Shown in pieces: positions 1 through 59,068 of a stretch of DNA of 59,068 bases. The translations under genes were made by a program, and so were the position numbers. Position 1 is the first letter of the stretch; each line of letters begins with the position of its first letter. The DNA is from a virus (Duplodnaviria; Caudoviricetes), in IMG/VR virus record IMGVR_UViG_3300021168_000032, positions 1 to 59,068 of that record. The stretch is one strand, 5' to 3'. The notes beneath the pieces were generated by a model. That model searched no databases. It was not told the origin of the DNA and saw nothing but the letters and a program-made list of their open reading frames with translations.

Positions 1-119
<119 letters not shown>

Positions 120-6084: not shown

Positions 6085-6458
6085 AATCCATCATCGCAGC
6101 TCTAGGAATTGCGTTTGCACCTGCCGCAAACGCAAGTCCATGCCATCACTATGCCACATGGCACTACCCCTATCCTCAGCCCTCATGTGGGGGTCGGGCC
6201 GGGGTTGGGCAGAACCCAACCCCAGATAATGCCTCCAACTGGTACGTGGAGATTCAGCTCCCCACAGAAGCTGAATCTCAAGATCCAAGGAGCATTCCTT
6301 TCCCAGTCCTCTTAGCTCAGTCTAAAGATGAACTCAACATACTTCTCCTCTCACGGAAATGGAGCAAAACCCTCCAGAAGCCCTGGATTGACACTTGTGT
6401 TCGCACCTCAACTCCCGAACAATGCGAAACAGCCTGGGAAAAACTAAACAACAAGTGA
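6081..6458 (+). CDS. putative secreted protein
   Basis: Signal-like MKSIIAALGIAFAPAANA; four Cys; ATGA coupling. Confidence 0.6.
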   Translation: MKSIIAALGIAFAPAANASPCHHYATWHYPYPQPSCGGRAGVGQNPTPDNASNWYVEIQLPTEAESQDPRSIPFPVLLAQSKDELNILLLSRKWSKTLQKPWIDTCVRTSTPEQCETAWEKLNNK

Positions 6459-16603: not shown

Positions 16604-16662
16604 ATCCTCTTCAATAAGCAGTCGAGCAAAGCTCGACTGCTTATTGAAAGGATCGGACTTCG

Positions 16663-18081: not shown

Positions 18082-19244
18082 CATGTCCCCCTTTTGCCGG
18101 GTGGGCTGGCTCCCGTGAACCGCGCCTAGTCATTATCGGCGAGGCATGGGGCGAGTCCGAAGAACAGACAGGCGGTATTCCCTTCTGCGGAATAGCCGGA
18201 GCCGAACTATCTCGCATTCTTCTAGAAACCATTCCAGCCAACAAATACACGGCTGACTTCCGGTTCGCTCTTGGACGCTCCGGCTGGCATCAGATGCGAA
18301 ATGTATGGGCCAAGGAGGCCGGAATTGGTCTGACCAATGTGGCCGCACTCCGTCCACCAAACAATGACTTCGACTTCCTCCTATGCTCCAAGAAGGAGCT
18401 TCCCAATGACTATCCTCAACTTCCCCCGCTCGGACGTGGCAAACTTGCCTATCTCAAAACGGAGTATTTGGGTGAGCTTGACCGTCTCCGAGCCGAACTC
18501 GAGCAAACCAGACCAACGTGTATCATTGCGGCTGGAGCTATCGCGACCTGGGCCCTCCTTGGAAGAACTGACATTAGCAATGTCCGTGGCACTGCGACAG
18601 TGGGCTCGTCAGGAGGGGTTGCTCCGGGAGTAAAAATCCTCCCCACTTACCATCCATCCGCAGTCCTGCCTGGACGTGGACGCCGTGAGTGGCGTATCAT
18701 CTGCATGGCCGACTTCATTAAAGCCTGGCGCGAAACATCCCATCCCCGAGTGATCCGGCCCGAGCGTAAAGCCATCATTAACCCAACTCTGGAAGAAGTT
18801 ATAAATTTTACTAGGGGTATCATTTCTTGGTCATCTCCTCTAGCCGTAGACTGTGAGACAGCAGGTCCGCTAATCACCTGCATCAGCTTCGCCCACAATT
18901 CTCAGTTTTCCATTACCATTCCGTTCCGTAACAAGGCTGGTACGCACAACTACTGGGGTACGGTTGAAGAAGAGCTTCAAGCCTGGGCATGTGTCCAGAT
19001 CCTCTTGGAGTGTGGACGCCCACTTGTTTTCCAGAATGGTATGTATGACATGCAGTATTTTATTAGAATGGGTTTCAAACTGCATTGTGCTCGTGAGGAC
19101 ACCATGCTGCTACACCATTCGCTTTACCCAGAAGTTCAGAAGAGTCTCGGTTTCCTAGGCTCCATCTACACCAACGAAGCTAGCTGGAAGCTGATGGGTC
19201 GGCATCGTGCAACCAAAGTGAAGGGAGAAAAACTAGATGAGTGA
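18078..19244 (+). CDS. family-4 uracil-DNA glycosylase-like domain + 3'-5' exonuclease (N-terminal part of split DNA polymerase)
   Basis: IIGEAWG..E....PFCG.AG, TNV...RPP.N, TYHPSAV; ExoI AVDCET, ExoII FQNGMYD, EDTM. Confidence 0.85.
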   Translation: MTCPPFAGWAGSREPRLVIIGEAWGESEEQTGGIPFCGIAGAELSRILLETIPANKYTADFRFALGRSGWHQMRNVWAKEAGIGLTNVAALRPPNNDFDFLLCSKKELPNDYPQLPPLGRGKLAYLKTEYLGELDRLRAELEQTRPTCIIAAGAIATWALLGRTDISNVRGTATVGSSGGVAPGVKILPTYHPSAVLPGRGRREWRIICMADFIKAWRETSHPRVIRPERKAIINPTLEEVINFTRGIISWSSPLAVDCETAGPLITCISFAHNSQFSITIPFRNKAGTHNYWGTVEEELQAWACVQILLECGRPLVFQNGMYDMQYFIRMGFKLHCAREDTMLLHHSLYPEVQKSLGFLGSIYTNEASWKLMGRHRATKVKGEKLDE

Positions 19245-19671
19245 CCATCCTCTTGAGTCGAATCTTGCTTTACAAGATTCGACTCAACATCCCGCACCTG
19301 GGGAAGGCTACTGGTACATGGCCGGTCCCTATTCCGACAACATAATGGAGCGCTACAAAGAGCATTTAGCTTTAGCAGCTCTTTTAACAAAACGTAAACT
19401 AACTGTATATGCCCCCATCATTCACTATCATGACATGGCACAAACATATAACATGCCAACAGATGCGGAGTTTTGGAATGAACATAACCGCCACATGATA
19501 TTCCGCTCCAGAGGAGTAATCCTCCTTTGTTTTCCCAATTGGGCTCAATCAAAAGGAGTGCGGAAAGAACTGGATTATAGCAAAATGATTGGTTGTCCAG
19601 TGTGGGCGCTAGATCCGCCTCCCACATACCAAGGAGATGAAGTGACCTTGAACTGGACAAGATTACTTTGA
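19237..19671 (+). CDS. DUF1937 / nucleoside 2-deoxyribosyltransferase-like protein
   Basis: YMAGPYS, VYAPIIHYH, W..SKGVRKE...A/S...G.PV. Confidence 0.7.
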   Translation: MSDHPLESNLALQDSTQHPAPGEGYWYMAGPYSDNIMERYKEHLALAALLTKRKLTVYAPIIHYHDMAQTYNMPTDAEFWNEHNRHMIFRSRGVILLCFPNWAQSKGVRKELDYSKMIGCPVWALDPPPTYQGDEVTLNWTRLL

Positions 19672-19728: not shown

Positions 19729-21261
19729 ATGCCAGTCATCCAGACAGCTACAATAGAACCTGGCAGGCTGAATATTGAAGAGCAGCATCAGACCTATTGT
19801 GCGCTCGACTCCATGCTCACACTAGAGATCCTGGAGAACATCAACAAGGAACATCCGGGCGGTGCGGAGCCAATCTACTCCTTTGAGAGGGCGCTTCAAG
19901 CTCCCCTCCTGGAGATGGCTCTTCACGGCTTCCTCATTGATGGACTGGATCGGTACCGAATGGAGCTTGCAGTGAAGCAGCAAGTTGCTGCTTCGCGACA
20001 GGTGCTGAACATATTAGCTCAGCATGTATGGGGTAAAGAACTTAACCCCCGATCCCACACCCAGTTATCAGACTTCTTCTATAAGACAATGAAGATCCCC
20101 GAGATCTGGCTTTCCTTTAAGGGAGAGCGTAGACTGTCAGTCAATCGGGAGGCCCTAGAGAAGATAGACGAGTATATGTATGCTCGACCAATTGTCTCCC
20201 TCATCCTTTCATGCCGCGATCTCTATAAGCAGTTGGATGTCCTCACTGAGGAGATAGACGAAGATGGACGACATAGAACTTCGTACAATATCGGCGGAAC
20301 TGAAACAGGCCGTCTTTCATCTTCAACTTCAGTCCTCGGCACAGGCGGAAACGCTCAAAATATTGCTCCAGAACTCCGCCGAGTCTTCATATCAGATCCA
20401 GGTTGGAAACTCTGCTCGATTGACCTTGAGCAGGTGGAGGCTCGTGATGTTGGGTTTCTCTGCGGGTGTTTGTTTGGGGACTGGTCTCTGTTGGATTCTT
20501 GCGAGTCGGGAGACTTCCACACCAACAACTGCAGACTTATATGGCCAGATCAGCCTTGGCCAGCCGATCCCGCTGGTTGCCGCCAGCTGGCTGAACGCAT
20601 ACCCGTCTACCGCGATTGGACAATGCGTGACTTGGCCAAGCGAGGAGGCCACCTCACCAACTACAACGGAACAGCATGGACAATGAGCCGTGTCTTAAAG
20701 CTCCCCATGAAAGTCTGTGTGGAGTTTCAGGCGCGCTATTGTAGAGGAGACGCCAAGAACAACATTCGCCCAGCTTATCCAGCTCTTCGCCAATACTGGA
20801 ACTGGATAGCCGACCGGCTTCAGACGGTCGGCTCCATTACGACACCATTCGGAAGGCAGCGTCACTTCTTTGGAGATCATAGGAGTGATGCCACACTAAG
20901 GGAGGCAATTGCATTCGTTCCCCAGAATATGACGGCTGAACGCACAAATCTCTGGCTCTGGTTGGCATGGGCTAGACTCGGAGATCGCATTCAGCTATTA
21001 GCTCAGACACACGACTCCATCACCTTTCAATTCCGTGAAGATGATAAAGATGCGGACGAACTTATCACAGCAGTCTTAGAACTGTTGAATGAAATTAAGC
21101 TCTTTGACTCGAAGAGTCAAAGAGCTTATATCGCGCCTGGAGCCGCCAAGGTCGGGTGGAACTGGGCACCGGAGTCGGGAAACAACCCGGCTGGATTACT
21201 CAAGTGGAGGAGGGGAACGCATGACAGGCGTTCTAGGCCGTCAGGCTTAGAACGACTGTAG
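19729..21261 (+). CDS. polA: family A DNA polymerase (ExoIII + polymerase domain)
   Basis: YCALD, TETGRLSS, N.QNI, motif A DLEQVEAR, motif B RDLAKRGGHLTNY, motif C THDS. Confidence 0.92.
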   Translation: MPVIQTATIEPGRLNIEEQHQTYCALDSMLTLEILENINKEHPGGAEPIYSFERALQAPLLEMALHGFLIDGLDRYRMELAVKQQVAASRQVLNILAQHVWGKELNPRSHTQLSDFFYKTMKIPEIWLSFKGERRLSVNREALEKIDEYMYARPIVSLILSCRDLYKQLDVLTEEIDEDGRHRTSYNIGGTETGRLSSSTSVLGTGGNAQNIAPELRRVFISDPGWKLCSIDLEQVEARDVGFLCGCLFGDWSLLDSCESGDFHTNNCRLIWPDQPWPADPAGCRQLAERIPVYRDWTMRDLAKRGGHLTNYNGTAWTMSRVLKLPMKVCVEFQARYCRGDAKNNIRPAYPALRQYWNWIADRLQTVGSITTPFGRQRHFFGDHRSDATLREAIAFVPQNMTAERTNLWLWLAWARLGDRIQLLAQTHDSITFQFREDDKDADELITAVLELLNEIKLFDSKSQRAYIAPGAAKVGWNWAPESGNNPAGLLKWRRGTHDRRSRPSGLERL

Positions 21262-31303: not shown

Positions 31304-32911
31304 TTACCTGGCCCTTCTCGCTCCAATATAACCCATACCCGCAGACGTTCCTCCACCAGTAAGCTGCACTACTAAGAAAACACTCTTGGACGCATTCGTA
31401 TTGATCCTACACCTTCCAGCCGGCAGATAAAATCCTCCTGACTGCATCCCACCCTGTGTCTGCATCATCGACGCCACTCCAGCCAGCACATTAGCCGTAG
31501 TTGGCAGTGCAGCACTCGTCTGACTTATCCCCACCATCACCTGAGACGGCCCATTCTGCGCAGTAAAATAGACTGTTCCGAACACGTCCCAATCACCCGC
31601 CGTCAACACCAGCGTAGCAATATTGACCGGCACCGTCTGCCCTATACCAACTCCGACGGTCGTCGAGGTAAACAGGACTTCCCCTATGCAACCAGGCGGT
31701 GCATTATCCTGTGCAACTGTCCCCAACAGATTAAGCACGCCTCCCATGGTGACGCCGCCAGCCTGCGGCACCTTCGTATCCGAATACTGCTTAGTCGTGG
31801 CCCCGAGGGCCACGACAGGGTCGCCAGACAGTACCAGCAGTCCGGACATAGTATCGCCAGACTTCGCTACCCTATTAGCATCTGACGGATGCACATGGTC
31901 TGCCCTAGCCCAGGTAGTCCCCGTCCCAACAGCCGCCGTCCCCGCCATGAGCGGAACAACAGTGGAAGGCCCAGGCACAGAGCTATCCACATACTGCTTA
32001 GTGGAGGCCCCGAACGGCACCGAGGGATTAGTATTCAGTACAAGTGCCCCCGACATCGTCCCACCAGACAGTGACAGCTTGGTCGGATCAGACGGGTGCT
32101 GATGGTCCCCTCTCGAATAAACAGCCGATACACCTGCCGATCCCGCTCCATCCGGCGCAGGCACCGTATTCGATCCAGCCGGCACAACCGGAGCTGGCAC
32201 AAAGATGAAACCATCAGTGCCCAGAGTAGCCGTATTACCAGCATTTCCACTCACAGTACCTGGGCCTGCAGGGCCTACAGGTCCTGCCGGTCCTTGCGGT
32301 CCTGCTGTCCCTGTATTACCGGTCGGCCCTGGCAGTCCCTGCGCACCTTGCTGGCCCATTGGGCCTGCCGGTCCTTGCGGTCCTGTCAATCCAGTATTAC
32401 CTGCTGGTCCCTGTTGCCCAGCCGGGCCTTGCCCACCTTGCAACCCTTGAGGTCCAGCCTCACCAGGCACACCTTGCGGACCAGCTGGTCCAACCGCACC
32501 ATCTTGTCCAGCCGGTCCCACTCCTCCAGCTGGTCCGCTAGGACCAGCCGGACCTTGCGGTCCTGTCGGACCTGCAGGTCCAATTGTCCCAGGTGCTCCC
32601 GACGCACCCTGCAACCCATCCGCTCCAGGCAGTCCTGGATCACCCTTCGACCCAGCTGGTCCTGCCGGTCCCGTATTTCCAGGAGGTCCACTTGGCCCAA
32701 CAGGGCCTTGTGGCCCTGGAGGACCGACGCCTCCCTGATCCGCACCCAGCACAACCCAGTCGGCATCTTGCATTCCATAGACCTGCCCATCCGCAGGTGC
32801 AATCAGCGGATGACTATCAGCCTCCGCAGCCAGCTGTTGCAAATCAAGCCCAGTCGGCATGACTGGTCCGGTCGAGACATTAAAACTCGGATACTTCCCA
32901 GTCACCGCCAT
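31304..32911 (-). CDS. collagen-like (Gly-X-Y) tail fibre
   Basis: About 50 GXY triplets, R.DH.HP repeats, GGTMSG.L.L repeats, C-terminal LTAGDWDV...ARR.R. Confidence 0.85.
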
Positions 32912-32921
32912 CCCACTCTCC

Positions 32922-33908
32922 TCAAGCCAAGATCCTGACACTCGCCTTCCGCGTAACAGTCACAGTCGGCGTATAAATAATAACAATCAAACCCTGTCCT
33001 CCAACTCCACCAGTCTGACCGCCAGCTGAGTTGGGCCAGCCCATACCGCCACCACCACCCCCATACAGTCCCCCTGCACCACCACTATTCCCAGCAGAAG
33101 ATTGCGATCCTCCACCTCCACCGCCACCTCCCGGTCCATGCGAAGCATCCCAGGTACTTTCAACTCCCACACCTCCCGCACCAGCCAGCGTAACAGTAGT
33201 CGTTCCAGTCCCACCTCCACCACCCCCTGAGCCATGCGCTCCTGCTTGCCCAGTAGTCGTAGCAGTTCCAGCAGCACCACCTGCCGTTCCATCTCCAGCG
33301 GCTCCACCTGGGCCACCAGTCGTCGAAACAGAACTCGAAGCATTTCCACCTACACCCCCAGCTCCTCCAGTATTTCCAGCGCCTCCACCTCCACCACCCG
33401 CAAACGCAGCAGTAGTCGAACTTCCCGTCCCACCAGCACCGCCTACACCTCCTGGACCAGCCGCACCTCCACCACCCGCCCCGCCATCATGATTACCCCC
33501 AAAACCTGAGCCAAAACCACCCTGCCGAACAACCACATTACCTATATCATTAGTCGTCGCCGTCGTCGCATTACTCACCGTATCAGTTCCATGCGCTCCA
33601 CCAACTGCACCACACAGCGAAGTAGCCAGACTTGTTCCACCAAACCAAGTCGCTCCTCCTGACGTCGCCGCAGCTGGCGTCGTCCCAGGAGTACCTCCAG
33701 CCCCAATCGCCATATTAATAACTGCTCCACGTGTCAGCGTCAAATTAGCTGACTTGGCATAATGCCCACCCTCTCCACCAGTTCCCACATTACTGCTTGT
33801 ACTCGTCCCCGCTCCACCACCACCAATGCACTCAACCGAATTAGCTGCATTATTCCAATCAGACGGAACAGTCCAAGTTGTCCCAGATGTAAGAAAAATA
33901 GTTGTCAT
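32922..33908 (-). CDS. glycine-rich virion protein
   Basis: [20 protein letters not shown], long GGxGG arrays, G.QGLIVI.Y. Confidence 0.8.
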
Positions 33909-33963: not shown

Positions 33964-34899
33964 TCATACTCTCATCGCCAAAATAGTAATCCCTATATCA
34001 GCCAATGTGCTGTCACTCGTCGACGGAGCGACGAGTGACAGCACATCCCCAATAGCCAAACTCCCACCTGCACCTGCAAGCGTAGCAGATGTATGCGACC
34101 CATTTGTAATTGTCACAGTCCCCAACGCAGTAGTAGTTCCACCAGAAATTTTGTTCAACGTAAACACGGCACTCGCCGTTGCCAGCGTAGCATCATAAAC
34201 GACCGTTCCAGCCAACGCAGCCGGTATGGTCAAAGCCATCGCTGACGGAGCATTAACCATCGCCCCATTCGCTGGTACGCCCGGAAACGCAAAACTAATC
34301 GGAACCTTCTGCACCTCAGCTGGCAACTGAGCATAAGTTATACTTCCTGTTATCGCATTCGCTAGCACAAAAGCAGTCGTCGCAATATTATTCGAATTAT
34401 CTGCCAACGCCGGTGTCGGCGCAGTCGGCGTCCCCGTCAGCACCGGCGAGTTGAGCGGGGCGTAATTCATATTAGCTGCCCCAGTCACCAGCCCCTTAGC
34501 ATTAACACTAATACCCTGGAATGTCCCAACATTTGCATTCACATTGGCCAGGGTCGTCGACACAGTCGTCGACCCTGTCCCTACCACATCTCCTGTCAGC
34601 GTAATTGGCTGATTACCAGTCAAGAACGAAGCAGTTGCTGTATTCCAGTCTGAAATATCATTATGGTTAAGCGTTACAACTCCCGTCTTCCCAGCCACAC
34701 TCGAAACCGAGGCCGTCGTAGGCAGCACAACCCAAGCCGCACTCTGCCTTACATAATAATTCCCGTTATTCGGAGCATCCGGAAAAGTAGAAAACCCCGC
34801 ACTAATATCCGCAGCCAGCTGCTGAAGGTCTTGGCCGGTAGGCATAAGCCGGCCAAGACTAGTATTGAAGCTAGGATACTTTCCAGTCGAGAAAGTCAC
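33964..34899 (-). CDS. tail fibre-like protein
   Basis: DAP.NG..YVR, VSSVAGKTGVVTL, VNAKGLVT, APLNSP.LTGTPTAPT. Confidence 0.8.
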   Translation of the reverse strand: MTFSTGKYPSFNTSLGRLMPTGQDLQQLAADISAGFSTFPDAPNNGNYYVRQSAAWVVLPTTASVSSVAGKTGVVTLNHNDISDWNTATASFLTGNQPITLTGDVVGTGSTTVSTTLANVNANVGTFQGISVNAKGLVTGAANMNYAPLNSPVLTGTPTAPTPALADNSNNIATTAFVLANAITGSITYAQLPAEVQKVPISFAFPGVPANGAMVNAPSAMALTIPAALAGTVVYDATLATASAVFTLNKISGGTTTALGTVTITNGSHTSATLAGAGGSLAIGDVLSLVAPSTSDSTLADIGITILAMRV

Positions 34900-47663: not shown

Positions 47664-47709
47664 CGCTCACACCCTCCTGAAGTTTGAGCAAGCTTGTCTT
47701 GCTCAAACT

Positions 47710-49152
47710 TCATAATCCCATCCACCCCAAGTTAGGAGCTAAATCTCTCCACTTATTAACTACTGCATTCCCTAACCTTCGTCCAATATCCTGCTCCTCG
47801 CCCCTATCAAAGTACGGATCTTTAATCGTCACCGCCATATACCTCAGCGCATCAGCCGCATGACTCGCCCAATCATGCACTGGATCTTTCCCCAACTGCC
47901 CAGGCCTATTGTCCCGTGCCTCCTCCTCAATCTTAAATCTATAATGCCTCAGCGCATTCAGCCCATCCTCGCACTTATCCTCGTCAAACCACATATTCGG
48001 AAACAGCATTCTCACCATATTGCGCCCATCCACTGGAGCAATAGATCTCGCAATCCTGACTCTCTTAGGATAAACGGCCGCAATCTGCTCCTTTATGGTT
48101 TTCCGCATCCCAAGCTTTTTATGTTCCGCGTCGAACGGCAATACATGCAGCCCATAGACATAGTGTCTATTCTGCAGAACATCCATAAAGTGCTCCACAT
48201 CCTCCCCGGTAGCCTCGTAATAATCAAGTATGCGAATCTGCATTGCCACTTGTTGCACAAACCAGATTGATGTGCAATCCCTCTTCCCCAAATCCCAGTA
48301 TGTATCCACAGGGACAGTTCGTTCCCACGGAACGGTTGCAATCCTCCCCTCTTCCGCAGCTTTCCGCAATTCTTTGGCATAAACCACCCCCTCCAGAATC
48401 TGCAAACAATGCCCTTCCCAAACATTCAAATAATAGTCATAATCCCTTTCCTTATCCGCCTGCATATCCTTCTTCAGCACCTCAGGAAACCAGGGATTAT
48501 CCCTATAAGTCATCTTACAAACAAACGCGGACTCATTCTCCAACATAATACTGGCCCCAAGCGGTTCGGTGAACCTCCTAGGCCCAACCGGACTAAGACT
48601 TGCATCCTTCACAAACCTCTGATAAGTGTAATCTGTCTCCAGCTCAGGATTGAAAGTGAGCCAAATCTCCGATCCCTCATTCCTTATGGTCGGTATGAGT
48701 ACTCCCCAAGAGTTCTTCCTGACCTTCACCGCCTCCTCAACCCAACAAATATCTATGCCCTCATAGCTCTTTATTCGATTAACATTATTCCTAATCCCTT
48801 CAAAATTAAATTCAGTCCCATTCGCCCCATAGATCTTCGTTTTCTGCACATCATAGAAATTGCCCCACCCCAGCGCCTCAATCTGGTCCTTAAGCACCTT
48901 ATAAACGGAGTCATCAATCGAGTTCTGATACTCCCTAACGCACAAAATCCTAGTCGCCTTCTCTCTCCCAATCACCAGCAGTGCCCTAGCACACCCCCAA
49001 GACCTCCCTGCACCTCTCCCACCCCACAGAACCTTAAACCTTTTTTTCTGAAACAAACACTGCAATGGACCAGGAAACGCCAGATTTGGCCCTGAGCGAG
49101 CCTTTGGCCGGCTTACAGTTATTGACCCACCATTGGACGACCCACCAATCAC
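47710..49152 (-). CDS. terL: terminase large subunit (PBSX/Terminase_3-type)
   Basis: GGRGAGRSW, CVRE.Q.SI, WVEEA, TFNP, WDLG..D, HDWASHAADALRY. Confidence 0.93.
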   Translation of the reverse strand: MIGGSSNGGSITVSRPKARSGPNLAFPGPLQCLFQKKRFKVLWGGRGAGRSWGCARALLVIGREKATRILCVREYQNSIDDSVYKVLKDQIEALGWGNFYDVQKTKIYGANGTEFNFEGIRNNVNRIKSYEGIDICWVEEAVKVRKNSWGVLIPTIRNEGSEIWLTFNPELETDYTYQRFVKDASLSPVGPRRFTEPLGASIMLENESAFVCKMTYRDNPWFPEVLKKDMQADKERDYDYYLNVWEGHCLQILEGVVYAKELRKAAEEGRIATVPWERTVPVDTYWDLGKRDCTSIWFVQQVAMQIRILDYYEATGEDVEHFMDVLQNRHYVYGLHVLPFDAEHKKLGMRKTIKEQIAAVYPKRVRIARSIAPVDGRNMVRMLFPNMWFDEDKCEDGLNALRHYRFKIEEEARDNRPGQLGKDPVHDWASHAADALRYMAVTIKDPYFDRGEEQDIGRRLGNAVVNKWRDLAPNLGWMGL

Positions 49153-50408
49153 TAATTTAGCTCCCCATCTACCGCAATCATCCCACTCCCTCCATTCTCA
49201 TAAAGGAAGGTAGCCGTCTTCACATTTACCCCTGTCGCGCATCCAATCGTTACTCCCAGCCGAGTAGCAACCATCCCTGGCGTCATCGCCAACCCCGTGC
49301 AAGGCGTAATCCCTCCGGAGTTAGCATCTGTCTGAAACCCCGGAGCAAACGTCACAGAGGGCGTTTTCCCCATTGGCACTGGATACTGAAGAAAGCAATC
49401 TGCCCTCAGTGAAACACTTGCCAGGCAAGGCCCACCAATCACATCCAGTCCCACTCCCTCATTTCTCTGCCAGTAATAAGCCTGCTGCAGCAATGTCTCC
49501 TGATTACCCAGCCGCCAAACAAAAGGCGGTGTCGGCAGCAGCGCAGCCGCATAAGCAGTAAACTGAGAAGCAAAGGGAGCAAGCGCCGGAGCCATTCTCA
49601 GCTGAATGCCCGAGAAATCCATAAAATCACCAGCTCCCGCCGTCCCATTCGGCGTCATACAGAGCACAACCCCCACCTCAGTCGCAGTGGTCGGGACAAG
49701 CCCGACCACTGCAGGCCGTGTAGCTCTCCCAATAAATAAAGGTGAGTACTGAGCTCCCACTACCCTATTTTGCCCAGTCCATCCAACCGACCCGCCTCCA
49801 CCCCCATTGAACCCAAACGCCAGCTTCTGCATCCCCTCATCAGTTCCAGTCCCCGTAATAATATAAATCCCCACCTGGGAAGCGCTTAGATTAGCGCCAC
49901 CAAACACATAAAAATCCAAATCAACAACCTGCCCCTGCAACATCCTACTATTCGCCGAACTAACCTCCTGGGCCATACACATCAAATCGGTTCCAGCCGA
50001 TCCAGCCTGTCTCTGCATCTTATAAGCCGCTGAGAACCCCGGTACCGTAGCAATAGCCGTGAGATCTTGACTAACTGTCATGGGCGTAGCCGCCCCACTC
50101 CAGTAAGCCCACCTATCTGGTCCAAACTCGACCGTCGTCGTCACCGTCGGTCCTGTCGTACCACGCTGGAACAAATTCTGACTCGCATCCCCCGCAATCA
50201 ACCAATTCTGCTGCGGATCAAGCGTCAACACATACGACCCAAGCTGCTGAGTCTTAATCGTCACACTCGGAGGCGCAATCCCAGTATCAGCCGGAACCTT
50301 TTCCTGCCCCGTTAATGGAGGCTGAACTGGTGGCAGTCCTGTGAACACCTGGGCGGAGGCCGCCCAGGTGTTCACAAAAGCAGCTAATACTAACGCTTGT
50401 CGCCGCAC
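49152..50408 (-). CDS. signal-peptide-bearing protein with tail-fibre/carbohydrate-binding-like domain
   Basis: GTG start after AGGAG; MRRQALVLAAFVNTWAASA-Q; NWLIAGD...FQRGT..GPDRW, GIQL, E..L.Q.YYW, YPVPM.KTP. Confidence 0.65.
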   Translation of the reverse strand: MRRQALVLAAFVNTWAASAQVFTGLPPVQPPLTGQEKVPADTGIAPPSVTIKTQQLGSYVLTLDPQQNWLIAGDASQNLFQRGTTGPTVTTTVEFGPDRWAYWSGAATPMTVSQDLTAIATVPGFSAAYKMQRQAGSAGTDLMCMAQEVSSANSRMLQGQVVDLDFYVFGGANLSASQVGIYIITGTGTDEGMQKLAFGFNGGGGGSVGWTGQNRVVGAQYSPLFIGRATRPAVVGLVPTTATEVGVVLCMTPNGTAGAGDFMDFSGIQLRMAPALAPFASQFTAYAAALLPTPPFVWRLGNQETLLQQAYYWQRNEGVGLDVIGGPCLASVSLRADCFLQYPVPMGKTPSVTFAPGFQTDANSGGITPCTGLAMTPGMVATRLGVTIGCATGVNVKTATFLYENGGSGMIAVDGELN

Positions 50409-50728
50409 CTCAACTCCTGCATCGCAGACTTCAGACTCTCCTCCCCTGCCGAAGTCCGACGAGGCGGACTTCGGCAAAGCCTCGAGGTGAAGCCTGACAC
50501 ATCAGGGTTCATGGTGTCGAACGGTTCGTGCGGCACATGCTGATCGTTACTCGAATACACCATATACGAGTCAGGCCCCCTGCTTGCTAACGAACCGGTC
50601 GCCGAGAGCTTCGGTCTCGGATCACCCGCAGGCTTCGACCCACTCTTCGGGCGTGTCCGAATGTTAGGCGTCTTACATTCCGGCTCCTTCTCAGGAGCCG
50701 GAATCCCAATCAGCATGTTCAGCCTCAT
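50390..50728 (-). CDS. hypothetical protein
   Basis: AAGGA RBS; fills gap in operon. Confidence 0.5.
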   Translation of the reverse strand: MRLNMLIGIPAPEKEPECKTPNIRTRPKSGSKPAGDPRPKLSATGSLASRGPDSYMVYSSNDQHVPHEPFDTMNPDVSGFTSRLCRSPPRRTSAGEESLKSAMQELRCGDKR

Positions 50729-50737
50729 AGCAGTTCC

Positions 50738-51379
50738 TTACTTGGGTTCTGGCCTCGGCGGCAGCGGCGGCACATTCTCCGGAATATCGATCACCGCATA
50801 GCGATAACCGACCCCCGAAATCAAAACCAGCGCAATCGCCTTCCCAGCCGGAATTTGGGGAGGCAATGGCGGCCAGACCGTCCCCGGAGGCGGATCTGTC
50901 GGAGGCGGCTCAATCCCTTCAACCGGTGGCAGCTCATTATCCGGATGAGCCGGGTCCATAGGCCAGATCGGCAGCCCATGTTCCGGATGCTCACCCCCAC
51001 CACCAACTCCCCAGTCCGGATCAACCGGCAATCCACCACCCGGAGGCTTTGGCCAAACATGAGGCGGCCTCGGCGGCCTATTCCCTACATGCGGCGGCCT
51101 TCCAGGCCACACCGGCAGCCCCTGATCCGGATACTCAGCACCACCTCCCCAACCCCAGTCTGGATCGACTGGTCGTCCAGGCCTCACCGGCCCTTGATCT
51201 GGCCGACCCGGCCAAGAGCCAGGCGGCCTATTACCAACATGAGGCGGCCTCCCACCAGGGATACCATAGCCGGGGTCCACACCCTCATCCACGCCGTAGT
51301 CGGGATCGACTGGCCTTCCATCCCAACCAATACTCGGACGCTCAACAAACCTGATATAAGCCCAGGAACCTTTTGCCAT
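50738..51379 (-). CDS. proline-rich repeat protein
   Basis: Repeats PVDPD(Y/W)G, GRPPHVGNRPP, (Y/H)P(D/E)..LP; AAGGAG RBS. Confidence 0.75.
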   Translation of the reverse strand: MAKGSWAYIRFVERPSIGWDGRPVDPDYGVDEGVDPGYGIPGGRPPHVGNRPPGSWPGRPDQGPVRPGRPVDPDWGWGGGAEYPDQGLPVWPGRPPHVGNRPPRPPHVWPKPPGGGLPVDPDWGVGGGGEHPEHGLPIWPMDPAHPDNELPPVEGIEPPPTDPPPGTVWPPLPPQIPAGKAIALVLISGVGYRYAVIDIPENVPPLPPRPEPK

Positions 51380-51418
51380 GCTTTCTCTCCTTAAATTGGC
51401 TACCAAATTGCAGCCAAA

Positions 51419-51595
51419 CTATGAAACAACTGGGCCGAATACCTGCCAACCGAGCAAGCCAAACAGCACAAACTCAATAATGCCGCCGCCTGCCATATGG
51501 GAGGCCAAAGGCCCACCAAATCCGCCGAAATTAACTCCGGCCCAGATCAGTACACAGATGACCCAGATCACCCAAAATAGCAGGCCTTTCGGCAT
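51419..51595 (-). CDS. small 2-TM membrane protein (58 aa, not in ORF track)
   Basis: MPKGLLFWVIWVICVLIWAG...IIEFVLFGLLGWQVFGPVVS; GAGG RBS. Confidence 0.75.
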   Translation of the reverse strand: MPKGLLFWVIWVICVLIWAGVNFGGFGGPLASHMAGGGIIEFVLFGLLGWQVFGPVVS

Positions 51596-51644
51596 GAGTC
51601 AGCCCTCACTTCGTTCGGGCTGCCTCAGCAGCCCTGATGCTACA

Positions 51645-51950
51645 TCACCGACCGTGTCTGGATTTCGGGTGCATCCCAGCAAGCGGCTCATGCCGATCAT
51701 GGTGACTCTTCCCATGATGCGGCCCATGGTCCGAGTGCTTATACGGATGCTGAGAATGCAGCTCATCTACTGCACCTCCCAAATCCTTCCCCTTATGCGG
51801 ATCACTCGTCACTTCCATCCGGCCGTCACCCCAAGCCCTATTGGAGTATTTCTTCTCCTGTCCAGGCCCACCTCTCGCCGGAGCGTGATGCCCTGACCTG
51901 GGCTCATGTTCCTGCGCCCTATTCTGCTCTCTTTCCTTACCACTTGCCAT
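51645..51950 (-). CDS. His-rich hydrophilic protein
   Basis: AGGAG RBS in hairpin arm. Confidence 0.65.
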   Translation of the reverse strand: MASGKEREQNRAQEHEPRSGHHAPARGGPGQEKKYSNRAWGDGRMEVTSDPHKGKDLGGAVDELHSQHPYKHSDHGPHHGKSHHDRHEPLAGMHPKSRHGR

Positions 51951-52030
51951 CGTAGTCTCCTGTTGGAGCCCTTTGGGCTCCAACAGGAGCCTACAGGGCA
52001 GTTGCTTTAAGATAGCGAAGCTCTGCTTCG

Positions 52031-52222
52031 CTATCTTAAACCTTTCATTGGTCCAGTTGGAATTTCCTCAGCCACTTTCTTCGCCTTCTTACCGAGGCCT
52101 GCAGCCTTCATCTTCCCTCCTCTCCGTCTAAATGGACTCTCGGCAGCCCCTAACGGCTCCGCCTTCATTGAGGGCGGCGTCTGCATTGGCCGCTTCCCGC
52201 CCATCAACAGATTCTTAACCAT
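52031..52222 (-). CDS. small basic protein
   Basis: AAGGAGG RBS. Confidence 0.55.
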   Translation of the reverse strand: MVKNLLMGGKRPMQTPPSMKAEPLGAAESPFRRRGGKMKAAGLGKKAKKVAEEIPTGPMKGLR

Positions 52223-52721
52223 ATTTCAGCTCCTCCTTCAGCAGTGGCACTCCTCCGATATGGTGCCACACCGGACAGAACGGCGGATTAATTTCCATGC
52301 CCAATTGGATCGTCTCTTTCAGAGACGATCCAATTGGACGAGCAGTATCCCGCGTCAGATATTTGCAAACCACAATAGGTAATATCTGTGACTTAGGCAT
52401 CTGGAGCGCCATTGCCACCACGGGAATATACAGCCCATGCAGCTGCTCTTCAGCCTCCAAAGTCCACGTCAGCTTGCTCTCCAACAGAATGGCCCACTGC
52501 TTAGCTTTCCCAAAGAAATCCGTCTGACACACTCCCACCCCTGCATCATCCTTAAATTCCCACCACATCCCATACCGAAACTTCGTCCCCAGTCCCTTCG
52601 CCAGCGCCCTCTCATACCTAATTCCTTCCCCCCGCACATTTTTCCCTGCCCTCGAGAAAGGAATAAACGCAGGCTTCCCCTCAATCTGCCTTGCCCACCT
52701 CAACCCACTCACCTGCCTCAC
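52215..52721 (-). CDS. putative PD-(D/E)XK nuclease (resolvase-like)
   Basis: G.RYE, CQTDF, LLESKLT, A..QL..LY. Confidence 0.55.
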   Translation of the reverse strand: MRQVSGLRWARQIEGKPAFIPFSRAGKNVRGEGIRYERALAKGLGTKFRYGMWWEFKDDAGVGVCQTDFFGKAKQWAILLESKLTWTLEAEEQLHGLYIPVVAMALQMPKSQILPIVVCKYLTRDTARPIGSSLKETIQLGMEINPPFCPVWHHIGGVPLLKEELKYG

Positions 52722-52924
52722 TTCGGCGGCTCCTCATGGTCACCACTCTTCTTACTAAACCAGTATCCCATAATAACCGCACTTACCGCCGGAATAGTAA
52801 GAAGCAACTTATCCACTACTTTCTCGCTATGAATAACTTCCATTCCCATAAGCACTAACGCAGTCATTGCCATAATTGCCCATATCACTGTAATAATAAA
52901 ATCAGGCTTCAGCAGATTTTTCAC
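52718..52924 (-). CDS. putative holin (2 TM)
   Basis: GTG start; two TM segments ending IMGYWFS; adjacent to endolysin. Confidence 0.6.
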   Translation of the reverse strand: MKNLLKPDFIITVIWAIMAMTALVLMGMEVIHSEKVVDKLLLTIPAVSAVIMGYWFSKKSGDHEEPPK

Positions 52925-53603
52925 TTTTTCCCCCCACACCCGGTCTCGGCATGTGGGCTGCCTCCGGCAGCCCAGGCAACTCTTCCTCAATCATCATCAC
53001 ATCCACCGGCACCTGCCTAAGAGCATTCTTAAACTTCCAGTAGTATCCAGCGATCAGGTCCATCTTATCCGTCCCATTCACAATCCGCCTCGCATTCACG
53101 GGATCTTCAATACCCTTCGATTTGGACAAATACTTAGGCAGGCCGACACCTGTGAACCACCCATAGACCATACCATCATAACTAACCAGCGCACTAGTCT
53201 GCGAGTGCAGCATCAGATGTGCCTCGGGATGAATATTAGCATGGACATTATAGCGCTCCCTAAGAAATTTCTGCCCATTCTTATAATTCTCCTCCCACGT
53301 CAGTTGCACATGTCCGCGCCCATAATAACATTGCCCATACGGCCCGACAGGCTTACCATAAGACTTGCCTGATCCCTTACCATATTCCTCAATAGGCTGC
53401 ATAGTATAGGCAGTTTCATGGTAAAATGTGGCCAGCGCATAAGCCAGCCACATCGTACCATCATTCGGATTATTCTTCTCAAAATGCTGCTCCCACACCT
53501 CAAGCAGATAATTCATGCCATCCACTTGGCTCTGCGTGAGCGTACCACCAAACAGATCTTTCCGCACCGTATCAAAATAGTACTTTCTCTCGTAAGGCAT
53601 CAT
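52902..53603 (-). CDS. endolysin, glycoside hydrolase family 19
   Basis: LAY.LAT.YHET..TMQPIEE.G, YYGRGHVQLTW..NY, ARRIVNGTD. Confidence 0.88.
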   Translation of the reverse strand: MMPYERKYYFDTVRKDLFGGTLTQSQVDGMNYLLEVWEQHFEKNNPNDGTMWLAYALATFYHETAYTMQPIEEYGKGSGKSYGKPVGPYGQCYYGRGHVQLTWEENYKNGQKFLRERYNVHANIHPEAHLMLHSQTSALVSYDGMVYGWFTGVGLPKYLSKSKGIEDPVNARRIVNGTDKMDLIAGYYWKFKNALRQVPVDVMMIEEELPGLPEAAHMPRPGVGGKSEKSAEA

Positions 53604-53610
53604 GCGCCCC

Positions 53611-54492
53611 TTAACTGGTTGGGCATGGACAAGTTCCTGGCGCCTGCTCAGTAAGTGTATTCCCATTAATCAGGATAAAATTACCGCCACTCCCCTTATT
53701 AGTAAGAAAATTAATCGGCGGTCCCACCACTGTCAAATATATCGGAGGTGGAGATCCAAATGGGGCAGACCCATCTGTCCCCAAATTAGCCGCACTCAAA
53801 TCCGCGTTAATAAACTTCCTCCTATTAGAAACCACAGTCAAATCAACAAAACTAGCCGTAGAGGATGCCCAAACATTTCCCATCGCAGGAGCCAATATAT
53901 TCACCCCGGCAATCATCAGAACAGCCCCAGCTGGGCCATCCTGCATCATCCCAGATCCAATCCATCCTCCACTCATAATCCCCAGAGGCGCATCATTAGC
54001 ATAGACCTGCATCACTTGTGCAACCGAATCAACTGAGAAAATAACATTCCACATCTGATTAACTGGCAAATGATAAGTCCCATTAAAGAATACGGTAGAC
54101 AGAAAATTATTTCCAACCTCAAGCGCAAAAGTAGGGGCGCCTCCTCCCAGCACAGTCGAAATCTGCTTATTAATAAATTCAGTGGCATTAAAGCCTATAT
54201 CAGTCGTATGAGTGGCATCAGCTGGACAGCAGAACCAAGCAGAGTACAAAAAGTATCTAAAACTACTCGGAAACAGTCCCTGCAAACTAGATTGCAACCC
54301 ACCCCCATTCTGATTAAACTGAACGAGCGGCACCGGGTTAACCGTCGGCGTGCAAGTCGGCCCAGTAGGCGGAACGACAGGTGCATCAGCGACAGAGGAG
54401 CATAGTTGTTTAGCAGCTCTAGCTTTACCTGCGACAAGCGCAGGTAAAGCTAGAAGACCAGCAGCCGTATCTCTTCTATTTAGGAGGCGCAT
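53611..54492 (-). CDS. exported beta-rich (LamG/ConA-like) protein with Tat-like signal
   Basis: MRLLNRRDTAAGLLALPALVAGKARA-A; YSAWF, W.VIFSVD, QVYAND, NKGSGGNF; six Cys. Confidence 0.6.
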   Translation of the reverse strand: MRLLNRRDTAAGLLALPALVAGKARAAKQLCSSVADAPVVPPTGPTCTPTVNPVPLVQFNQNGGGLQSSLQGLFPSSFRYFLYSAWFCCPADATHTTDIGFNATEFINKQISTVLGGGAPTFALEVGNNFLSTVFFNGTYHLPVNQMWNVIFSVDSVAQVMQVYANDAPLGIMSGGWIGSGMMQDGPAGAVLMIAGVNILAPAMGNVWASSTASFVDLTVVSNRRKFINADLSAANLGTDGSAPFGSPPPIYLTVVGPPINFLTNKGSGGNFILINGNTLTEQAPGTCPCPTS

Positions 54493-54721
54493 GATCTGGG
54501 GCCTTGTCAGGCCCCAGAGCAGGAGCAGCTTTTTCAGCTTTAATCCTGTCTAGTTCCCGCTGCAGTTTAATGATTGTCACGTAGGCGTTTGCCACCTTAT
54601 CCAGCGCTTCCTCCCTCTGCTGCCTCAGCGCTTGTATCACATCATTGGACTCCTGTGCTTGCACAGGAGTCCAAAATACAGCTAACAAAATGAGAAAGCT
54701 CGTCTTTCTCATTTTGTTCAT
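54476..54721 (-). CDS. small secreted coiled-coil protein
   Basis: MRKTSFLILLAVFWTPVQA-Q followed by heptad helix. Confidence 0.65.
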   Translation of the reverse strand: MNKMRKTSFLILLAVFWTPVQAQESNDVIQALRQQREEALDKVANAYVTIIKLQRELDRIKAEKAAPALGPDKAPDHAPPK

Positions 54722-55899
54722 TTCAGCTTGACATGCGCAGCAGTTGCAAGCTCGTTCACTTCCCTCTCCAGCGTCTGCACCTCAGTTTCAATGGCAGGGA
54801 TCTTGGCCACATTTTTATGTGCATTGACAACCTGCGTCTGCACCTCCACCTGAGCCGCCTGAATTTCTGCCTGCGTAGAAGTCGCCGACAGCGTCCCTGC
54901 TCCCAAGAAGACGTCCCAGGCTGCAACTTGCCCACTCATCCAAGCCGAAATCGCATGACCAGTCCCTCCCGGCACCGGATCAATCCCAACCTCTATATTA
55001 TAGATTGAGGAAGAGCCAACGCAGAGTGGCAACGTCCCACCAGTCCTATCATGACAGACTGCTGTTCCCCCACCTGGCAACCCAGTAATGGTCCCCGTAA
55101 AAGTTGGATTATTCCATGTCCCCCCATTAATAGTCGGATTATTAATAGTGGGATTATTCTCCGCAACCAGCGGCCCAGTCCCATCCAGCGGCAAGGCCAG
55201 GGCAGCGGCTACGCCGCTACCCAGCCCCGTCAGTGTACTGACTGATCCGGCTGGTGGAGTTCCCCAAGTGGGCGCTCCGGACGCATTTCCAAACAGCACC
55301 TGGGAAGAGTTACCTAGCGGCAGACCACCAAATATACCATTGTTATTATACTGGAGGGCGCCATTGGCTCCAAGAGGAATGGTTCCGCCGCCCACACAAT
55401 TATACCCGCCAGTAAGCTGATCCCAAATAAGATTGCTGTTGACATCGTACACCATCTGCCGATAAATGCCCGACCCCCAGATGAGCGCCTCTCCAGACCC
55501 ATTCAGCACAATCGGGTTAGGATTCACAATGGTCTGGTAGGGATCTTGCCACGTCGTCTTAGGAGTGGTCGTTCCCGGAGTATAGAAAAAGACTATCCCA
55601 TTCGACAGCGGTTTCCCATTCGCATCCGAAAACTGTGTATACCCATTCGGAATAATAACTGCCGTGGGTGTTTGGGAGTGTGCTTCGCACACTCCCAAAA
55701 CCCACAAACCACCAAACAACAGGAGAGAAGCTCCCCTTCTTCTTTGCGCGCCGTTCAAAGAACGGCGCGCAAAGGTCGGAGTCTGAGCCTCACTCACTGA
55801 GGGGATCAAAAATGAAGCCCAGACTCCTAATGAGGCGGCTAGAAGGGCAGGGGCTTGCCGCCTCAATGAAACGGAGACGGCGCTGAAGCGCCGTCTCAT
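54718..55899 (-). CDS. tailspike/fibre with P22-type head-binding-like domain, preceded by signal peptide(s)
   Basis: PNG.TQFSDANGKPL.NG.VFFY.PGTTTPKTTWQD....NPNPIVL...GEA.IWGSG.YRQ.V.D.N.NLIWDQ; ALQYNN.G.FGG; C-terminal coiled coil. Confidence 0.75.
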   Translation of the reverse strand: MRRRFSAVSVSLRRQAPALLAASLGVWASFLIPSVSEAQTPTFARRSLNGAQRRRGASLLLFGGLWVLGVCEAHSQTPTAVIIPNGYTQFSDANGKPLSNGIVFFYTPGTTTPKTTWQDPYQTIVNPNPIVLNGSGEALIWGSGIYRQMVYDVNSNLIWDQLTGGYNCVGGGTIPLGANGALQYNNNGIFGGLPLGNSSQVLFGNASGAPTWGTPPAGSVSTLTGLGSGVAAALALPLDGTGPLVAENNPTINNPTINGGTWNNPTFTGTITGLPGGGTAVCHDRTGGTLPLCVGSSSIYNIEVGIDPVPGGTGHAISAWMSGQVAAWDVFLGAGTLSATSTQAEIQAAQVEVQTQVVNAHKNVAKIPAIETEVQTLEREVNELATAAHVKLK

Positions 55900-55919
55900 A
55901 GCGAATATCCTATAGTCAT

Positions 55920-56291
55920 CTATCCGCCATTAACTGGTAAGGGGTTGGCCGTGCTTACTGGCACACATGAGTAGACCGTGGAGCCATTCACAACCTGCGA
56001 CCGCTGCACGCAAATATTCAGCGGGTTCGTCCCAGGAGCCGAGGCTGTTCCGCTGCCCGAAGAGGTCACCGGCAGTCGGTTACTGCTGGAGATGGGCACA
56101 CAGGAGGTGGTCTTCACTCCATTCGTGACCGTGCTCACCTGGAAACAGAGGGTAATCAGCTTCTGGCTTTGCGCCGTTGGCGCAAAGCCAAGAGCAACTC
56201 CCAACAAGATGAAAAGGGCTATGTCTTTGACTAGGCTCAGCCTGACGCGCCGCACAATGTGCGGCGCGTCAGCAATGCGTGATGATGCCAT
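55920..56291 (-). CDS. secreted protein with two C-x13-CVP(I/V)S..N.LPV repeats
   Basis: h-region IALFILLGVALGFAPTAQS; duplicated Cys-pair motif. Confidence 0.7.
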   Translation of the reverse strand: MASSRIADAPHIVRRVRLSLVKDIALFILLGVALGFAPTAQSQKLITLCFQVSTVTNGVKTTSCVPISSSNRLPVTSSGSGTASAPGTNPLNICVQRSQVVNGSTVYSCVPVSTANPLPVNGG

Positions 56292-56808
56292 TGGTGACCA
56301 CAGTGGTTGCAGGCGTCAGAATACCAGCTGCGCAAGAGACACCAGGAAGACTGTTCGCTGTGAAAGAGAGGGCAGACATAACCCCAGTCAGTGTCAGACT
56401 GGTGCCCACCGCCGCACCTGCCGGAGCGATGGTCGCGCCATTACTCATCAGGAGCTGACCTGCCGTGAAGCCCGACGTAGGCGTAGTGCCAGCTGTCAAA
56501 GTGGCAGTGGAAGTCCCTAACACACTCACCGGGAGAGGGGTGGATGCACTCACTGGCACGCAGGAGGTGGTCGCAATCCCATTCACCAGCGTGGTGATCG
56601 CCAGACACAGGGACGCAGACTGTTGGGATTGGGCTGGACAAGCCAGCCCAATTCCAAAAAGCGAGATAACTGCGAGAATAGTTAGCTTTACGCGCCCAAC
56701 TAAAGTTGGGCTGCCATCCAGCTTTACGCGCCGTCCTAAAGGACGGCGCGTAGCAGAGAACAGCCCTTTAGATTTGGGCTGAACGAAGTGAAGCCCAAAT
56801 CTAATCAT
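56269..56808 (-). CDS. secreted protein with the same Cys-pair motif and fibre-like C-terminus
   Basis: ILAVISLFGIGLACPAQS; LCLAI...SCVPVSASTPLPV; ends VTNGIITHC. Confidence 0.65.
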   Translation of the reverse strand: MIRFGLHFVQPKSKGLFSATRRPLGRRVKLDGSPTLVGRVKLTILAVISLFGIGLACPAQSQQSASLCLAITTLVNGIATTSCVPVSASTPLPVSVLGTSTATLTAGTTPTSGFTAGQLLMSNGATIAPAGAAVGTSLTLTGVMSALSFTANSLPGVSCAAGILTPATTVVTNGIITHC

Positions 56809-57364: not shown

Positions 57365-57613
57365 TCATGGAGTCGAAAGTTGAGCCGAAGGCTCAACTGA
57401 GACTCCTCGGCTGAGCGTCGCTTCACGCGCCCGGAACTTGGCGCAGATGGCTTCAATTTTATGGTGGTTCTTCGCCACGGCTTCTAGAGATATGACTAGC
57501 TCTTTAGGAGGATTGAGGAAAGCTTGTCTTTCCTCAATCCTCCTAGCCGCCTCCTGGTTCAGTCGGATGACCGCGTAGGTCTCAGCATCCAGATCGGTTA
57601 GAGTTTGGCCCAT
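57365..57613 (-). CDS. hypothetical protein (possibly leaderless)
   Basis: ATG 6 nt after a -10-like box. Confidence 0.55.
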   Translation of the reverse strand: MGQTLTDLDAETYAVIRLNQEAARRIEERQAFLNPPKELVISLEAVAKNHHKIEAICAKFRAREATLSRGVSVEPSAQLSTP

Positions 57614-59025: not shown

Positions 59026-59064
<39 letters not shown>

Positions 59065-59068
59065 AACA

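Follow-up and report, generated by a model that had tools for sequence, protein, structure and literature searches.

Six late proteins with predicted export leaders around the lysis genes of a P22-like podovirus: candidate particle appendages that may mature in the periplasm

The 59,068-base stretch of DNA analyzed here (IMG/VR record IMGVR_UViG_3300021168_000032; hereafter, the window) reads as the entire genome of a P22-like podovirus of ~59 kb. Its minus strand includes a tightly packed, partly overlapping late operon in which lysis genes and six open reading frames with N-terminal leaders (ORF1 to ORF6) lie between a putative small terminase gene (TerS) and the large terminase gene (TerL). 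Based on sequence, the six proteins are very probably exported across the inner membrane, with ORF1-4 and ORF6 using the general secretory (Sec) pathway and ORF5 the twin-arginine translocation (Tat) pathway. This prediction is well supported, as the leaders are conserved through sequence change, the Tat features are kept and most close relatives have no canonical start codon at the leader/mature junction. What the proteins do once exported is read here, tentatively, as follows: they are particle appendages that mature in the periplasm and join the particles at lysis.

All six ORFs start with a basic stretch, followed by an uncharged hydrophobic stretch and a small-x-small site; they were noted for their signal-like N-termini in a first-pass annotation of the window and lie on the minus strand at the coordinates given there. 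A home-made crude test for Sec leaders (charged n-region, uncharged h-region of about 8-18 residues and small residues at -3/-1), which replaced an earlier, looser version that gave 13% false positives, is positive for ORF2-ORF6 (5 of 6). The test misses ORF1, in which a basic N-region of 41 residues precedes the hydrophobic stretch (residues 42-56) and the predicted cleavage after residue 61. Positives account for 14 of the 95 window ORFs and for none of 24 structural or packaging control proteins, compared to 110 of 1900 codon-shuffled ORFs. The tallies of leaders reported below combine this test with reading of the sequences. Shine-Dalgarno-like sequences precede the leader-bearing starts of ORF1 (GAGGTGG, 6 nucleotides (nt) upstream of the ATG), ORF3 and ORF6 (AGGAG, 6 nt upstream of the GTG). 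Two plus-strand ORFs of the early region (6018-6458, with an internal ATG at codon 22, and 10857-11444) also have classical Sec-like leaders; thus, predicted export is not limited to the late block.

The first-pass annotation had proposed that homologs without the N-terminal extensions would speak against export; close homologs instead keep the leaders while their sequences turn over. ORF6 has at least 301 homologs. The 120 listed show 39-100% identity, and many come from contigs of 50-66 kb; 118 of them have a classical leader, with leader sequences that are unrelated to one another, and the two exceptions are N-truncated gene calls. Among the ORF6 homologs called in viral contigs, 27 of 31 are leader-positive. 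The 18 closest homologs of ORF3 (52-89% identity) have the leader directly before a QTPTAV motif and the domain that follows (16 of 18 by the strict test, 18 of 18 by the loose test). ORF4 keeps its leader in 6 of 6 distinct homologs, and the long basic N-region, hydrophobic stretch and site of ORF1 are found in all 7 sequences read from its 16 homologs. ORF2 homologs with leaders include those of the related loci L011, L044 (729 aa), L045, L049 (312 aa) and L053. Tat leaders are marked by an RR pair before a mildly hydrophobic h-region and by a basic residue in the c-region. Consistent with this hallmark and with the twin-arginine leader proposed earlier for ORF5, the RR pair is kept in all 6 distinct leader-bearing homologs (SRRN, SRRT, NRRE, SRRQ, NRRS and NRRD), as is a K or R before the cleavage site; in the L008/L054 homolog this stretch is RRDLLAG. 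More distant homologs of ORF3 and ORF5 generally lack a leader. A leaderless isoform made from a conserved internal start was considered and dropped, as ATG, GTG and TTG codons are absent from -10 to +3 codons of the junction in 4 of 6 (ORF3) and 2 of 4 (ORF6) close relatives.

The leader/mature junctions of all six genes are encoded by perfect hairpins, for which the chance is roughly estimated at 8% per junction; that of ORF6 has a 17-bp perfect stem over the junction (50340-50376), and the Arg-rich N-regions of ORF1, ORF2 and ORF3 are also encoded by hairpins. Such elements occur across the window, which has 98 perfect hairpins with stems of 9-18 bp and loops of 3-9 nt, every stem sequence being different (e.g., 3472-3501, 16610-16648, 34005-34046, 47678-47712 and 57505-57545). 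Counted as stem/loop parses, there are 271 in the window versus 0.9 +/- 1.4 in shuffled sequence (about one expected by chance). Over half of the hairpins (56 of 98, versus 22 +/- 4 expected) are at most 60 nt from an ORF start or stop, and the apical loops TAAA, GAA, ACAAG/CTTGT and CAAG recur. Translated in frame, a palindrome is prone to yield a hydrophobic arm and then a polar, Gln-rich one, and the Gln codons behind the cleavage sites are the complements of Leu codons. The leaders could, on this basis, be artefacts of mis-called upstream starts that read through palindromic hairpins.

This explanation is hardly credible and is rejected. Scanning of 35 viral-contig loci showed 105 of their 109 leader regions to be free of hairpins, and the leaders of 118 of the 120 listed ORF6 homologs tell against it as well. 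Hairpin density is 1.66 per kb in the window, 0.5-2.2 in close relatives and 0-0.24 in 32 more distant loci, yet the hairpin-poor relatives still carry leaders. Likewise, ORF1 and most relatives have no canonical start between leader and domain, and good Shine-Dalgarno sequences stand before the leader-bearing starts. As the hairpin-poor relatives keep them, the leaders are older than the hairpins, and for the same reason a birth of the leaders from gene-start hairpins was dropped. The relatives L007, L044, L046-L050 and L054 have junction hairpins at the same positions with different sequences. The hairpins probably sit at the junction since the stretch there tolerates almost any sequence, and may serve as terminators, processing sites, translation brakes or DNA-level signals. 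A report on huge phage genomes (bioRxiv 10.1101/572362) describes unique perfect hairpins that are mostly at gene boundaries; compared to these, the window is far denser (98 in 59 kb) and has many hairpins inside coding 5' ends, including every leader/mature junction.

ORF3 was first described as having one signal peptide; it has instead two tandem leaders (residues 1-38 and 39-75), followed by a domain at residues 82-169, a Gly/Asn-rich fibre-like middle and a coiled coil at 343-388. Each leader unit ends in a small-x-small site and is followed by QTPT. The tandem leader is shared by the homologs P0124, P0126, P0127 and P0132, and a single leader is found in P0122 and P0123, which are 89 and 88% identical to ORF3; thus, by sequence comparison, the tandem arrangement is a recent duplication of ~111 nt. 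The AlphaFold model of ORF3 has a mean predicted local distance difference test score (pLDDT) of 58, with values of 67-87 over residues 80-165, and is poor outside two regions. When this model was compared with 48,161 PDB representatives by VIA-align with no prefilter, the top five ranks were the P22 tailspike head-binding domain (2vnl_A; Z 8.2, root-mean-square deviation 3.5, 84 residues aligned), Sf6 gp14N (7sg7_A; Z 7.8), in-situ P22 hub:tailspike structures (8eb7, Z 7.6; 8tvr, Z 7.4) and the tail machine of cyanophage Pam1 (7eeq; Z 7.4). Pan3 is found at rank 9, and podovirus spike or fibre N-domains occupy five of the nine top rows, a striking concentration of the top ranks in one functional class. 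The head-binding-like domain proposed for ORF3 in the first-pass annotation is thereby borne out.

The same domain matches phrog_26190 (E 1e-11) but no Pfam family at E up to 0.1 and, hence, is not a member of Pfam Head_binding. Over 81 aa it is 51% identical to the N-terminus of a leaderless 669-aa tailspike ORF of the cultured temperate Pseudomonas phage PAE2, which is located at the gp9 position after the ejection proteins and before the integrase. This PAE2 ORF (L043, OK041467.1; 14864-16873, plus strand) is unannotated in GenBank, where a 150-aa CDS on the minus strand covers its start. Distant homologs of the ORF3 domain are ordinary leaderless tailspikes with Pectate_lyase_3, Beta_helix or Collar domains, and only 2 of 19 are leader-positive. 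The ORF3 counterpart in the block of L018 and L027 has no leader; thus, leader-bearing and ordinary spikes appear interchangeable in the block. Across leader-bearing and leaderless members, 17 columns of the head-binding domain are invariant. Conservation is also strong at the mature N-terminus of ORF3, directly behind the predicted cleavage site. All-against-all BLASTP detects the domain in no other window ORF. The window encodes gp4-like and gp10-like hub proteins that are homologous to PAE2 proteins (33% and 35% identity, respectively, the latter over the full length).

Compared to tailspikes of the P22 gp9 type, the ORF3 domain at residues 82-169 shares the fold of the P22 gp9, Sf6 gp14, Pam1 and Pan3 N-domains (Z 6.0-8.2). 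ORF3 differs from this type in its two tandem leaders, in having a Gly/Asn-rich fibre and coiled coil instead of a beta-helix body, and in the location of its gene between the terminase genes and not at the end of the late operon.

ORF6 is, as judged from its model, a double jelly roll of the kind found at tail-fibre tips. The AlphaFold2 model (pLDDT 85) is a double beta-sandwich that matches predicted tail fibres of many phages in BFVD (best E 7e-27 at a template modelling (TM) score of 0.65, with other matches ranging to 1e-14 and TM up to 0.67) and modules of the CBM4/22/61 type in the PDB. The fold search is thus in agreement with the tail-fibre-type domain assigned earlier to this ORF. 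Five Cys residues are invariant or nearly so in the family. The model resembles the distal jelly-roll/CBM domains of tail fibres from podo-, sipho- and myoviruses, but ORF6 differs from these in having a Sec leader, a conserved linker of ~50 residues and the 5 conserved Cys, and in lacking both a long shaft and a virion adaptor. Further leader-bearing proteins, 900-1815 aa in length, are encoded by more distant phages that have an ORF6 homolog (L010 2583-8030, L018 269-4567, L013 16721-20719, and others in L028, L029 and L031), in many of which the mature N-terminus opens with a common LLQGG-type motif. These large proteins have almost no Pfam or PHROG matches; for nine large leader-bearing proteins of relatives searched against both, the hits are limited to weak Sortilin/BNR matches and phrog_26190.

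ORF1 and ORF2 are paralogous (41% identity over 87 aa) and are built on Cys-loop modules, with C68-C83 in the mature part of ORF1, followed by a C-terminal part with C159 and C179, and the repeats C49-C64 and C94-C109 in ORF2. This module heads proteins of 312, 341 and 729 aa in relatives, and ORF5 homologs reach 675-742 aa. Receptor-binding proteins usually consist of a constant N-terminal module and variable distal parts. The mature domain of ORF5 is probably LamG/ConA-like, an unconfirmed lead from the ESM Atlas, where it falls with viral ConA/LamG-like clusters (score 0.96) and reaches a TM score of ~0.7 to Baseplate_wedge and DUF7483 clusters. Six distant ORF5 homologs (P0163-P0167 and P0169) align from the mature domain and are without the twin-arginine leader; five of these extend further at the C-terminus, with a BNR-like motif in the extension. 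P0168, another match of the ORF5 search, carries Pfam PF11134, the P22 gp10 family. ORF4, from its sequence features, may be an exported small partner or an i-spanin-like protein. Two-component spanins pair a membrane-anchored protein that has a helical periplasmic domain with an outer-membrane lipoprotein, the gene of which is embedded in, overlaps or adjoins the first. Of the spanin features, an anchor-like leader, a coiled coil and a Pro-rich tail are present in ORF4, and a lipobox is absent from ORF5, the downstream gene that overlaps ORF4; small frames were not systematically scanned for lipoboxes. The six proteins have no usable family in Pfam, NCBIfam or PADLOC.

The mature parts of ORF1 to ORF6 have 4, 4, 3, 0, 6 and 6 Cys, respectively. 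Together these are 23 Cys in 1239 residues (1.86%) versus 45 in 8650 (0.52%) for 24 structural proteins, in keeping with the Cys pairs noted earlier in several of the ORFs. The first-pass annotation had suggested that virion-type receptor-binding proteins are exported and fold oxidatively; the conserved leaders, the Tat features and the enrichment of Cys at conserved positions agree with export and make oxidative folding probable.

Tailed-phage particles are, by the textbook rule, built wholly in the cytoplasm. For the six late proteins a different order of events is proposed, in which we infer cleavage, oxidation and, above all, attachment to the particle. The proteins would be made as precursors with Sec (ORF1-4 and ORF6) or Tat (ORF5) leaders and would cross the inner membrane, beyond which disulfides can form between their many cysteines. 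ORF3 (head-binding and fibre), ORF6 (fibre tip) and ORF5 (a lead to a LamG-like lectin) would represent host-recognition modules of the virion, ORF1 and ORF2 would provide Cys-loop modules that have large variable C-terminal domains in relatives, and ORF4 may be a small coiled-coil partner. The holin, whose gene lies midway in the block, would then open the inner membrane, such that the proteins meet finished, DNA-filled particles and ORF3 docks on the gp4/gp10 hub like P22 tailspikes. Canonical holins make very large lesions in the inner membrane, and the P22 tailspike is the final part to join in assembly and can also be attached to heads in vitro. Particle attachment is favoured because the sole head-binding domain of the gp9 type in the genome belongs to a leader-bearing protein, because the gp4/gp10 hub is shared with PAE2, whose leaderless tailspike has the same domain, and because the genes are late and terminase-coupled, with no integrase found among the 8 large plus-strand ORFs. 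In its general form, held still more tentatively, the proposal is of an extracytoplasmic branch of tailed-phage assembly in which appendages are exported by Sec/Tat, oxidized in the periplasm and mounted after the holin fuses the compartments, thus making the lysis cassette the last step of morphogenesis.

Several observations weigh against attachment of the six proteins to the particle. The six genes surround the lysis genes outside the structural module, which itself encodes leaderless fibres (33964-34899 and 31304-32941), such that the six proteins may not be needed for adsorption. ORF1, ORF2 and ORF4 have no recognisable virion fold, the fold Z-scores of 7-8 for ORF3 are middling in absolute terms, and a tblastn search of 50,697 cultured-phage records detects no ORF6 homolog. 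The signal test is crude, with 5.8% positives on shuffled ORFs. The double-leader topology of ORF3 is also a concern, as the second unit could act as a stop-transfer sequence that leaves the spike domain in the cytoplasm. Literature searches found no paper with a periplasmic step for any tailed-phage part, nor one in which tailed phages export tail fibres or tailspikes by Sec or Tat.

The location around the lysis genes and the presence of separate, leaderless fibres would also suit proteins that are exported and never enter the particle. Derived from receptor-binding proteins, such periplasmic or envelope factors may mask or bind the receptor polysaccharide during its assembly, for exclusion or to protect progeny from debris, or may aid envelope breakdown alongside the neighbouring holin and endolysin. 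Folds of the lectin or CBM type, as modelled, could bind envelope glycans, phages are known to encode exported accessory factors (T5 Llp, lambda Bor and Lom, P1 Sim and T4 RI), and ORF4 has an i-spanin-like layout of N-terminal hydrophobic stretch, coiled coil and Pro-rich tail, as compared with the spanin description in PMC3556154. This reading, the main rival, is nonetheless considered less likely than particle attachment. A head-binding domain would be superfluous in a protein that makes no contact with the hub, yet 17 of its columns are invariant. Exclusion is also poorly matched by late expression that is coupled to the terminase genes in a phage that appears to be lytic, and PADLOC and NCBIfam give no matches. 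The coding investment in relatives, with as many as seven such genes and proteins of up to 1815 aa, is typical of receptor-binding modules but unlike that of known exclusion proteins. The exclusion or receptor-blocking role offered as an alternative in the first-pass annotation is thus weakened. An improbable further reading is that the leaders are uncleaved signal anchors or tethers of the signal-arrest-release (SAR) type, which would hold the proteins on the outer face of the inner membrane and release them only when it is depolarized or torn at lysis, whichever role follows. ORF1 fits this best, as its conserved 41-residue basic N-region is atypical of a cleaved Sec leader and typical of a type II anchor; the leaders are Ala/Gly-rich, and SAR endolysins set a precedent in lysis cassettes. 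Cleavage is instead favoured by the small-x-small sites followed by Gln or Ala in all six proteins and by the strong conservation of the ORF3 mature N-terminus directly behind the site.

The filamentous-phage coat proteins pIII and pVIII are leader-bearing virion proteins that are assembled outside the cytoplasm; filamentous phages, however, extrude at the membrane, whereas the present phage is tailed, with portal, terminase and lysis cassette. Phage proteins with Sec leaders, some encoded in or beside lysis cassettes, include SAR endolysins, lambda Bor and Lom, T5 Llp and P1 Sim. These exported lysis and accessory proteins share the Sec leader with the proteins described here, but are small and not built from virion receptor-binding folds; to our knowledge, none has a head-binding domain. 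The T4 antiholin RI, with a cleavable leader, also belongs to this group (see PMC8385771).

If receptor-binding parts are routinely exported, maturation of the virion would depend on the host Sec, Tat and Dsb systems. Should the export route hold, the timing of lysis would be coupled to morphogenesis, disulfide-stabilized spikes would be a class to seek in environmental phages, and pipelines in which a signal peptide counts against a structural role would err across whole lineages. Conserved exported paralogs of receptor-binding proteins would, even without entry into the particle, represent a novel way for a phage to act on the envelope. With at least 301 homologs of ORF6, the family is large and would be testable once one member is cultured or expressed.

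The features of the block are listed in Table 1. Of the boundaries described in the first-pass annotation, TerS has only a weak PHROG match. In the 60,959-bp relative L044 the gene order from the TerS-like gene to TerL is unchanged and all six leaders are present. The overlaps of ORF3 with ORF4, of ORF4 with ORF5 and of the TerS-like stop with the ORF1 start are of the coupled-gene type. The six genes do not resemble morons or lysogenic-conversion genes, as they overlap late neighbours, have a GC content like the rest of the genome and occur in a phage with no integrase among its 8 large plus-strand ORFs.

Table 1. Features of the late block and its leader-coding hairpins, with window coordinates.
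Feature	Coordinates	Strand	Remarks
Putative small terminase, 183 aa	56801..57352	-	Weak PHROG terminase match, E 0.002; heads the same block in L008, L011 and L044-L049
ORF1, 179 aa	56269..56808	-	Sec-like leader to residue 61, then Cys-loop module
ORF1 leader-coding part, residues 1-61	56626..56808	-	Includes hairpins 56725-56752 and 56628-56652
ORF2, 123 aa	55920..56291	-	Leader of ~42 residues, then two Cys-loop repeats
ORF3, 393 aa	54718..55899	-	Two tandem leaders, head-binding-type domain, fibre-like middle, C-terminal coiled coil
ORF3 tandem leader-coding units	55675..55899	-	Hairpins 55874-55897, 55742-55774 and 55671-55699
ORF3 P22-gp9-type head-binding (particle-binding) domain, residues 82-169	55393..55656	-	Predicted from fold, PAE2 and phrog_26190 matches
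ORF4, 81 aa	54476..54721	-	Leader of 22 residues, coiled coil, Pro-rich tail
ORF5, 293 aa	53611..54492	-	Twin-arginine leader 1-26, then predicted jelly-roll domain, 6 Cys
Endolysin, GH19-like	52902..53603	-	Start probably ATG at 53603; phrog_181 endolysin, E 2.9e-18; Pfam Glyco_hydro_19 below cut-off
Holin-like small membrane protein	52718..52990	-	Two hydrophobic stretches; start uncertain; adjoins endolysin also in L007, L008 and L044
ORF6, 418 aa	49152..50408	-	Sec leader 1-19, ~50-residue linker, two modelled beta-sandwich domains at 70-418, 6 Cys
Large terminase (TerL)	47710..49152	-	Downstream end of block
Six leader/mature junction hairpins	56628-56652, 56164-56190, 55671-55699, 54645-54674, 54418-54454, 50340-50376		Perfect palindromes

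An unrelated protein of 145-155 aa replaces the GH19-like endolysin in L001 (395-832) and L047 (4394-4861), both of which have a TerL that is 92% identical; by sequence, this position is a cassette swap inside the block. The holin-like protein has no family match in NCBIfam or PADLOC. Several small conserved genes are also located inside the block between the holin-like gene and ORF6. Of the ORFs in this part of the window, 50738-51406 encodes a 222-aa protein that consists mostly of Pro/Gly/Trp/Asp repeats with a C-terminal hydrophobic stretch, is 75% identical in L007 and has no family match.

Replication genes are on the plus strand to about 22.4 kb and encode a split DNA polymerase, a primase-helicase, an exonuclease, a Sak4-like protein and a ParB/methyltransferase. 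The late genes span 22.7 to 58.9 kb on the minus strand and include P22-type head and hub genes (coat, portal, gp4-like and gp10-like), of which coat and portal are 56% and 40% identical to those of PAE2, with TerL at 37%. The phage is probably lytic, as an integrase is absent among the 8 plus-strand ORFs of at least 300 aa. The nearest cultured coat proteins are from phages of Pseudomonas and Acetobacter. A diderm host of proteobacterial type is tentatively suggested by the nearest cultured relatives and by the Shine-Dalgarno-like sites that precede many genes. A scan of species genomes returned two contigs only, both from metagenome-assembled genomes and labelled Salinisphaerales and Bradyrhizobium. 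The window has no tRNAs.

The DNA polymerase (phrog_17) is divided between two ORFs, 18078-19244 and 19729-21261, with a 144-aa ORF (19237-19671) between them. The GC skew of the plus strand is negative throughout, even in the first 22 kb where genes are on that strand, and the plus strand is strongly A- and C-rich over the first 10 kb. Both ends of the window (1-105 and 59030-59068) are A/C-rich and of low complexity with long A runs, and when joined would form one tract of ~150 nt. The relative L045 has a long T run (5-226) at the position that matches the window ends; thus, the A/C-rich ends are a feature of the genome and not a library tail.

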